A DNA stretch of 64,000 nt from Escherichia phage vB_EcoM_PTE-Eco09 (PQ306574.1), one strand, 5' to 3'; shown: positions 14,383-14,955, counted from the stretch's first letter. Notes: generated by a model from the letters alone, not told the origin. A program made the numbers and translations.

Positions 14383-14418
14383 AAATTAGTTGACACTACT
14401 CTATAATGGTTTTATTAT

Positions 14419-14442
14419 GCCTCCCGTCGAAAGATTGGAGGC
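14419..14442 (+). promoter_or_regulatory. 5' leader hairpin immediately upstream of the ADP-ribosyltransferase-like gene
   Basis: GCCTCC-CGTCGAAAGATT-GGAGGC followed by TTTTTTATT and ATG 14452. Confidence 0.4.
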
Positions 14443-14451
14443 TTTTTTATT

Positions 14452-14955
14452 ATGCAATTTACACCAGAAGAACTTAACATCATTGATGAAGTGATGAACT
14501 CTAAAGAAAATATCGATATGTCGATCCTTAATGGATTGATTGAAAAGACTGAGCGGTTAGTGCATCATGAAGCCTTGTATCGCGGTGTGAGCAAAAGAGA
14601 AGGCCGTAAGCTGGATACCTTAATTGTGGGTGATTCTTTCGTTGTAGAGCGTCCTATGAGCTTTACGCCACTACAATCAACAGCAGAGGACTTTGCAACC
14701 GATGTTTATGCAACAGGAAAGATTATTGCAATAAAACCTACCAAGCCTTGCATGAATTATTACGAACATGCTATTGACCGAGTGGTGTCTAAAGAGTATG
14801 ACAATCCGACTACTCGACTGTCTTTGTATGCTATGTTGGCAGATGAGCGCGAGTGCATATACAAGACAGGGACGACCATGATCCTTGATGAGATCGAGGA
14901 AGTTTACGCGTGTAACGGCGATCTGATAGAGATTTACAAATTTTCTTTAATTTAA
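14452..14955 (+). CDS. putative ADP-ribosyltransferase (Mod/Alt-like, R-S-ExE type)
   Basis: Ordered motifs LYRG (Arg), SFT (STS-like) and ERE (ExE); located near dda where T4 has modA/modB. Confidence 0.5.
   Translation: MQFTPEELNIIDEVMNSKENIDMSILNGLIEKTERLVHHEALYRGVSKREGRKLDTLIVGDSFVVERPMSFTPLQSTAEDFATDVYATGKIIAIKPTKPCMNYYEHAIDRVVSKEYDNPTTRLSLYAMLADERECIYKTGTTMILDEIEEVYACNGDLIEIYKFSLI

Follow-up and report, generated by a model that had tools for sequence, protein, structure and literature searches.

A 167-residue open reading frame (ORF) with motifs of an ADP-ribosyltransferase (ART) is preceded, between promoter and start codon, by a GC-rich hairpin and a run of T residues. The locus raises two questions: to which enzyme family does the protein belong, and what does a terminator-like structure do immediately ahead of its gene? 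The stretch that we analyzed, herein the window, comprises 64,000 nt of Escherichia phage vB_EcoM_PTE-Eco09 (PQ306574.1). Our preferred answer, to which we assign a probability of roughly 0.8, is that a promoter fused to a terminator hairpin, an arrangement termed PeSL (promoter-early stem-loop), drives and insulates a single Mod-family, arginine-type mono-ADP-ribosyltransferase, an early enzyme whose activity we infer; the probability refers to the promoter model and the enzyme identity jointly.

The mod gene and its product

Nucleotide comparison places the window in an RB49-like Krischvirus, a T4-type phage: over the 2 kb around the ORF, identity is 99.5% with Escherichia phage W115 and 99.1% with RB49, and 76 phage records, predominantly from Krischvirus, match this 2-kb region. 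The genes of this RB49 region run 41, dc2, dc1, 61.1, 61, 56, modB, srd, hypothetical protein, dda, dexA, and the ORF (14452 through 14955, plus strand; herein mod) corresponds to RB49p014, labeled “modB, RNA polymerase ADP-ribosylase”; other records call the same gene ADP-ribosylase or NAD--protein ADP-ribosyltransferase. In the window, mod lies downstream of gene 56 (dCTP pyrophosphatase; 13858 through 14382, plus strand; identified from the ORF list, Pfam dUTPase_2 and the RB49 annotation). On its other side are an early promoter for srd found by promoter scan (TTGACA-N17-AATAAT, 14959 through 14987, plus strand), srd itself (15017 through 15772, from the RB49 annotation), Y01A (dda.1) and, ∼1.1 kb 3′ of mod, dda (16086 through 17477); the mod-srd interval contains no hairpin. 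The initial annotation had located the ORF near dda, where T4 keeps modA and modB, and the window order 56, mod, srd, dda.1, dda is indeed T4-like (T4: dda, dda.1, srd, modA, modB), with the gene in the T4-type early region expected of a phage Mod. Krischvirus genomes carry one mod copy; many Tevenvirinae yield two matches. Directly 3′ of dda, two adjacent small ORFs on the plus strand (17488 through 17655 and 17657 through 17833) share C-terminal segments identical at 14 of 21 positions (...CINKM.E..TKRGF; E = 2e-8), which suggests that a small gene was duplicated in tandem.

The ORF contains LYRG (amino acids 42 through 45), SFT (70 through 72) and ERE (132 through 134), so that sequence and ORF list bear out the R-S-ExE order first read from this DNA. 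Across an alignment of 13 sequences that includes T4 ModA and ModB, residues R44, G45, S70, E132 and E134 are invariant. In the predicted structure, R44 (codon 14581 through 14583) lies in the strand formed by residues 42 through 45 and aligns with R73 of T4 ModB; S70 (codon 14659 through 14661), in a motif of the STS type, lies in the strand of residues 69 through 72; and the ExE motif E132-R133-E134 (codons 14845 through 14853) closes the helix of residues 119 through 132, just ahead of the strand of residues 135 through 137. The R73A substitution in T4 ModB abolishes both ADP-ribosylation and RNAylation (PMC10468400).

Profile searching against ART families, which the initial annotation had proposed as a check, matched PHROG 832 (“RNA polymerase ADP-ribosylase”) at E = 1e-20. 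The Pfam family PF26816 (Mod_ADP_RT) has precomputed matches on cluster P0001, which is 99% identical to the window protein, and on every relative found; in the Pfam-A copy that we scanned, the window protein gave no PF26816 match and only a sub-threshold match to DUF5507, and searches of NCBIfam and of PDB sequences with this protein returned no significant match. BLASTP aligned it with T4 ModB at 33% identity over 113 amino acids (E = 8e-11) and with T4 ModA at 23% identity over 159 amino acids (E = 2e-6), the latter alignment covering the ExE region; T4 ModA and ModB are themselves 30% identical. The profile and the matches to both T4 proteins thus assign the window protein to the phage Mod family (PF26816; PHROG 832). 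Judging from the sequences recovered, this family is small and divergent: word-indexed protein searches returned 3 and then 9 relatives, and an exhaustive representative search returned 10. In comparisons with orthologs at 63 to 75% protein identity, pN is 0.19 to 0.27 and pS is ∼0.70; pN well below pS indicates that mod is under purifying selection. In the representative search, five separate stretches of a 2067-aa protein (P0007) also matched Mod segment 67 through 105 (E = 2e-7); P0007 may be a large multidomain protein carrying repeated ART-like pieces.

An AlphaFold2 model built with 15 sequences has a pLDDT of 93.4 and a pTM of 0.86. Foldseek comparison of the model with the PDB gave 114 matches at E ≤ 1e-3, headed by Certhrax, VIP2, CDTa, C3 and iota Ia, and comparison with the predicted viral structures of BFVD gave TM-scores of 0.91 to 0.93 to phage ModB-type models (best non-self) and 0.83 to a ModA model. 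The predicted fold is the mixed α/β ART fold of the R-S-E (cholera-toxin-like, C3-type) class, in which strand 1 carries the Arg and strand 2 the Ser, and (Q/E)xE precedes strand 5. The lack of an ART fold had been named as an outcome that would count against the ART assignment; AlphaFold2 and Foldseek instead return that fold, and homology, invariant catalytic residues, predicted structure and synteny support the assignment. The sequence identity of Certhrax, CPILE-a, Vis, C3, iota Ia and VIP2 to the window protein is 8 to 21%, and unlike the C3-like and binary toxins it carries no secretion or translocation domains, being a minimal 167-aa intracellular phage enzyme.

In a neighbor-joining (NJ) tree, the short Mods (161 to 176 aa; the window protein and P0002 through P0006) form their own clade with 100% bootstrap, apart from the T4 ModA and ModB clades. 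This separate clade, together with the absence of ∼30 N-terminal residues present in T4 ModA and ModB (167 aa compared with 207 aa in ModB), could be taken to mean that the protein keeps an ART fold without being a protein-arginine transferase, and is instead a NADase, a nucleic-acid-modifying ART or an inactive binding protein. The full R-S-ExE set is, however, invariant and under strong purifying selection, and the nearest structures are protein-targeting ARTs. ExE, as opposed to QxE, marks the arginine-specific ARTs of the C2, iota and ART2 type. We regard a function other than arginine transfer as very improbable, and continue with a Mod-family arginine-type enzyme.

Which Mod it represents is less clear-cut. 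BLAST scores and TM-scores lean toward ModB over ModA, and ModB, its best-scoring T4 homolog, shares with it the R-S-ExE set (LYRG, SFT, ExE). The genes are alike as well: T4 modB is transcribed early from a sigma-70-type promoter of its own and has a GGAGGC Shine-Dalgarno (SD) sequence and an srd/dda.1/dda neighborhood. T4 has a modB-modA pair, whereas the window has one mod gene. The branching order of the short Mod, ModA and ModB groups receives bootstraps of only 5 to 38, and given this and the separate clade the “modB” label on Krischvirus genomes is nominal. T4 ModA, which ADP-ribosylates Arg265 on both RNA polymerase alpha subunits, is a member of this family too; beyond the low identity given above (23%), it has SAS in place of SFT, and comparison of sequence and structure with T4 ModA revealed no sign of alpha-subunit specificity in the window protein. 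The targets of T4 ModB are S1, EF-Tu and trigger factor; it also RNAylates S1 and L2, using NAD-capped RNA, and within the family these activities are known from T4 ModB only (PMC10468400, PMC3014915). By analogy with T4 ModA and ModB, the window protein would carry out NAD-dependent modification of host transcription and/or translation proteins. A tentative further possibility, which we would not put beyond a minority chance, is that the short Krischvirus-type Mod is a third, single-copy lineage equivalent to neither T4 protein: it could cover both roles (RNA polymerase alpha, translation factors and possibly RNAylation) or have other targets, and the leader described below would tie its translation to the promoter used. 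RB49 also has a diverged alt gene (PMC1524935).

Promoter, hairpin and ribosome site of the mod leader

The stop codon of gene 56 (TAA, 14380 through 14382) lies 7 nt ahead of a −35 hexamer, TTGACA (14390 through 14395, plus strand), which is followed 17 nt later by a −10 hexamer, TATTAT (14413 through 14418). The promoter scan scores TTGACA-N17-TATTAT at 11 of 12 matches to the sigma-70 consensus, and both boxes are conserved in relatives; the statement in the initial annotation that this is not a canonical sigma70 promoter is therefore not upheld. It had been based on TTGACA paired with a TATAAT at a spacing of 7 nt. Both hexamers exist, but TATAAT (14402 through 14407) lies 6 nt past TTGACA, inside the spacer, and the two do not constitute a promoter pair. 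When TATAAT is treated as a −10 box in its own right, the best −35 match is 3 of 6, and the position is not conserved; this candidate was rejected. A late promoter (TATAAATA) was also considered, and the mod leader contains none. Farther upstream, an A5 tract (14381 through 14385, about −44 to −40) is UP-element-like; an A-rich region at −40 to −44 is known for T4-type early promoters (PMC1524935).

RB49 early promoters have T at −7, the last base of the −10 hexamer, and prefer C at −3 to −1 (PMC1524935). With T14418 as −7 and the TCC preceding the start as −3 to −1, promoter geometry predicts +1 at C14425 or G14426, 7 to 8 nt past the −10 box and thus right after the 5′ arm of the hairpin (14419 through 14424).

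That hairpin (14419 through 14442, plus strand; GCCUCC.GUC-GAAA-GAU.GGAGGC) is a GC-rich stem-loop of 6 + 3 bp with a GAAA loop, its 5′ arm spanning −6 to −1 of the promoter. The folding energy is −15 kcal/mol (z = −3.4 relative to dinucleotide shuffles; 1 of 200 shuffles was as stable), and the stem-loop is followed by a U-run (TTTTTTATT; T6-A-TT, 14443 through 14451) that makes it terminator-like; the ATG is next, at 14452. The strong hairpin and U-run reported ahead of the start codon are accordingly present as described. A consensus terminator scan did not flag the hairpin, its rule being broken by the internal mismatch and the 12-nt outer loop, and we assessed it by direct folding instead. 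An Rfam search of 14200 through 15100 returned only a chance snoRNA match far under the gathering threshold, and no antiterminator or competing structure was seen in the leader folds.

The SD sequence of mod, GGAGG (14437 through 14441, 10 nt ahead of the ATG), lies within the 3′ arm of the hairpin, so the ribosome site would be masked in any read-through RNA. Opening the ribosome site (14437 through 14457) is computed to cost ∼13 kcal/mol in read-through RNA compared with 4 to 5.6 kcal/mol in RNA beginning at 14425/14426. In an equilibrium thermodynamic model, the probability that the SD is unpaired rises only from 0.00 to 0.14 in the own-promoter RNA, where partial pairing with downstream codons persists. 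The SD also holds a GGAG (14437 through 14440), and RB49 possesses a regB gene. In T4 early mRNAs, GGAG is the motif cut by the RegB endoribonuclease, and secondary structure protects it (PMC3014915). By analogy, the hairpin could also decide whether the mod GGAG site is cleavable by RegB.

These features match the PeSL elements of RB49 and phi1 (Arbiol et al. 2010; PMC2839356). By that definition, a PeSL occupies an intergenic space, combines an AT-rich part with a sigma-70 promoter of consensus type, carries a stem-loop that can take any of five places with respect to the promoter, and closes with the SD and start codon of the gene that follows. The mod leader occupies the intergenic region from the gene 56 stop to the mod ATG and has the A5 tract as its AT-rich part, the TTGACA-N17-TATTAT promoter, a hairpin that begins at the base after the −10 box (14419), and the GGAGG and ATG at its 3′ end. 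On sequence grounds it belongs to the subclass with the stem-loop just 3′ of the −10 box. As set out in the main text of that paper, PeSL promoters are very strong and a PeSL stem-loop put to the test matched rrnB T1 as a terminator, termination by the stem-loop being demonstrated there only for PeSL211/210; the 56/modB intergenic region is not among the examples that the main text names (PMC2839356). The mod cassette thus has in common with PeSLs the A-rich upstream part, the consensus promoter, the stem-loop, the 3′ SD and start codon, and the type of host phage. It differs in that its gene belongs to a known family and is not an ORFan, in that its stem is GCCUCC/GGAGGC where the typical PeSL stem has GGGG/CCCC tracts, and in that the 3′ arm of its hairpin doubles as the SD.

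About a dozen further PeSL-like cassettes occur on the plus strand of the window (for example at 2201, 8069, 18932, 20849, 21218, 29604, 54481, 57453, 57732, 58013 and 58238). These sites have strong sigma-70 promoters and a GC-rich stem-loop flanking, overlapping or directly following the −10 box; several share GGGAGTAG-TAAGAT-ACTCCC, with the stem mostly upstream of or across the predicted start.

Conservation of the leader among relatives

We compared the leader with those of six further loci (L004, L005, L008, L012, L013 and L014) and of phage JSE (L003), whose Mod proteins are 40 to 75% identical to that of the window; L008 was the sole new diverged locus found by scanning viral and metagenome contigs. 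One layout is common to all seven: a −35 box, a 16- to 17-nt spacer, a −10 box, a hairpin beginning 0 to 2 nt past the −10 box, 5 to 7 T residues and the start codon. The −35 hexamer TTGACA is invariant in the window, L004, L005, JSE, L008, L012 and L013, and reads TTGATT in L014; the −10 box is retained in all diverged relatives as TATTAT, TATGAT, TATAAT or TATACT. The spacer TATAAT is replaced in JSE (ATCAAT), L005 (AACAAT) and L013 (ATCTAC). A TATAAT-like hexamer 6 nt past the −35 box recurs in the window, L004, L008, L012 and L014 (TATAAT in four, AATAAT in one). The canonical promoter can do without this hexamer; common descent could explain its recurrence, as could use as a weak second −10 box, in which case the RNA would hold the full terminator.

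The hairpin stems vary in sequence while pairing is kept: GCCUCC/GGAGGC, GCCCCC/GGGGGC, GCCCUC../..GGGGGC, GCCCCAAG/CUUGGGGC and GCCACCAA/UUGGUGGC. At stem pair 4, U-A is found in three loci, C-G in three and A-U in one. The 69-nt leader is 99% (L004), 93% (L008) and 75% (L005) identical to that of the window, whereas third codon positions of mod are 49 to 50% identical in the same pairs. Leader identity so far above third-position identity means that the noncoding leader is more constrained than the gene, and we conclude from these comparisons that the leader is real and clearly under selection. The U-run is kept in all seven loci, including L013, where the SD sits 3′ of the T-run; that placement makes promoter plus terminator the conserved unit, with SD masking an extra of the RB49 branch.

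The gene upstream of the leader and mod varies. It is mostly gene 56; L013 has an N6/N4 methyltransferase gene in this place and L014 a Mom-like gene. JSE carries an oppositely oriented homing endonuclease gene (L003 1524 through 2444, minus strand in locus orientation) between gene 56 and the mod cassette. This gene overlaps the 3′ end of gene 56 by ∼77 nt, and the TTGACA of the mod promoter is the exact point at which similarity to the window sets in again. On the other side, srd is absent between mod and Y01A/dda.1 in L012 (3093), L013 (2986) and L014 (1360), where the Y01A/dda.1 gene directly follows mod. Such variable neighbors fit the idea that PeSLs act as module boundaries, without proving it.

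The same observations allow a different emphasis, in which the hairpin matters chiefly at the DNA level, as the recombination substrate of a mobile PeSL that shuffles genes among T4-type phages, with termination and SD masking secondary. PeSLs are described in Arbiol et al. as mediating deletions, insertions and the formation of mini-circles (PMC2839356), and differing neighbors around a conserved leader and mod, the missing srd in L012 through L014 and the abrupt start of JSE homology at TTGACA are what such a role would leave behind. A recombination site would, however, not need a U-run, which is conserved with the stem even in L013, and homologous recombination needs sequence identity, whereas the compensatory changes in the stem keep pairing and not sequence. 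A DNA-level role is moreover compatible with the promoter-terminator explanation; as the principal function of the hairpin we consider it unlikely, and we retain a promoter-terminator unit as the preferred reading.

Proposed action of the leader

Under that promoter-terminator reading, we infer that the leader acts through termination and differential translation, depending on where transcription starts. A polymerase arriving from genes 61 and 56 would transcribe the full hairpin and U-run and terminate; in any RNA that reads through, the mod SD would be locked in the stem and poorly translated. A polymerase initiating at mod's own promoter would start at about 14425, past the 5′ arm, so that the hairpin could not form; transcription would proceed, and the ribosome site of the resulting RNA would be comparatively open. 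Mod would then be made only from its own early promoter, insulated from upstream transcription.

The initial annotation had instead suggested attenuation or translational control. Because the predicted +1 lies past the 5′ arm, the mRNA that mod makes from its own promoter would lack the hairpin, which renders classical attenuation of that transcript unlikely; the translational part of the suggestion fares better, in that the SD is in the 3′ arm and would be masked in read-through RNA. The attenuation view in its full form holds that the promoter is non-canonical and that the hairpin and U-run, lying inside the mod 5′ leader, serve as an attenuator or translational repressor. It draws on the placement of hairpin and U-run, SD included, between the promoter hexamers and the ATG, and on the recurrence of the spacer TATAAT in several relatives, since with TATAAT as −10 box transcription would start at about 14414 and yield RNA with the complete hairpin. 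Against this, the canonical −35/N17/−10 promoter is present and conserved, TATAAT has the poor −35 match noted above and is lost in three of the relatives, the folds and the Rfam search revealed neither antiterminator pairing nor a known leader family, and the same combination of promoter and stem-loop recurs across the window as PeSLs. We judge an attenuator or repressor of this kind quite unlikely, and favor the insulated PeSL promoter.

The closest parallels in regulatory logic are the T4 genes e, soc, 49 and I-TevI: their long transcripts conceal the ribosome site in a hairpin, and RNA begun at a promoter within that structure exposes it (PMC3014915). As predicted for mod, the SD is paired in upstream RNA, and the own-promoter RNA is without the 5′ arm. 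In the T4 genes the internal promoter is late and the hairpin is no terminator, whereas in the mod cassette the promoter is early and the hairpin has a U-run. If the short Krischvirus-type Mod does represent a third lineage, its leader would be an early-gene version of the gene e/soc logic. The leader of T4 modB differs from that of the window: it has an early promoter (GTTTAC-N17-TATGAT) and a GGAGGC SD, and no terminator hairpin or U-run. An inverted repeat in the T4 modB leader (L002 4632 through 4700, minus strand; GATAGC...GCTATC) begins where the −10 box ends and stops shortly 5′ of the ATG; its loop contains the SD GGAGG, and a T-run is lacking. The repeat may weakly parallel the RB49 arrangement or have arisen by chance.

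The gene has been annotated modB since deposition of the RB49 genome, a Pfam family exists for its product, and the cassette type was published in 2010; with ORF, family and cassette type all already known, the finding is real but ordinary. Its modest value lies in a clean instance of a PeSL, conserved and covarying, that precedes a gene whose function is known. With the 3′ arm of the terminator serving as the ribosome-binding site, the mod leader would be a compact system in which to test how T4-type phages insulate a gene and tie its expression to one promoter.
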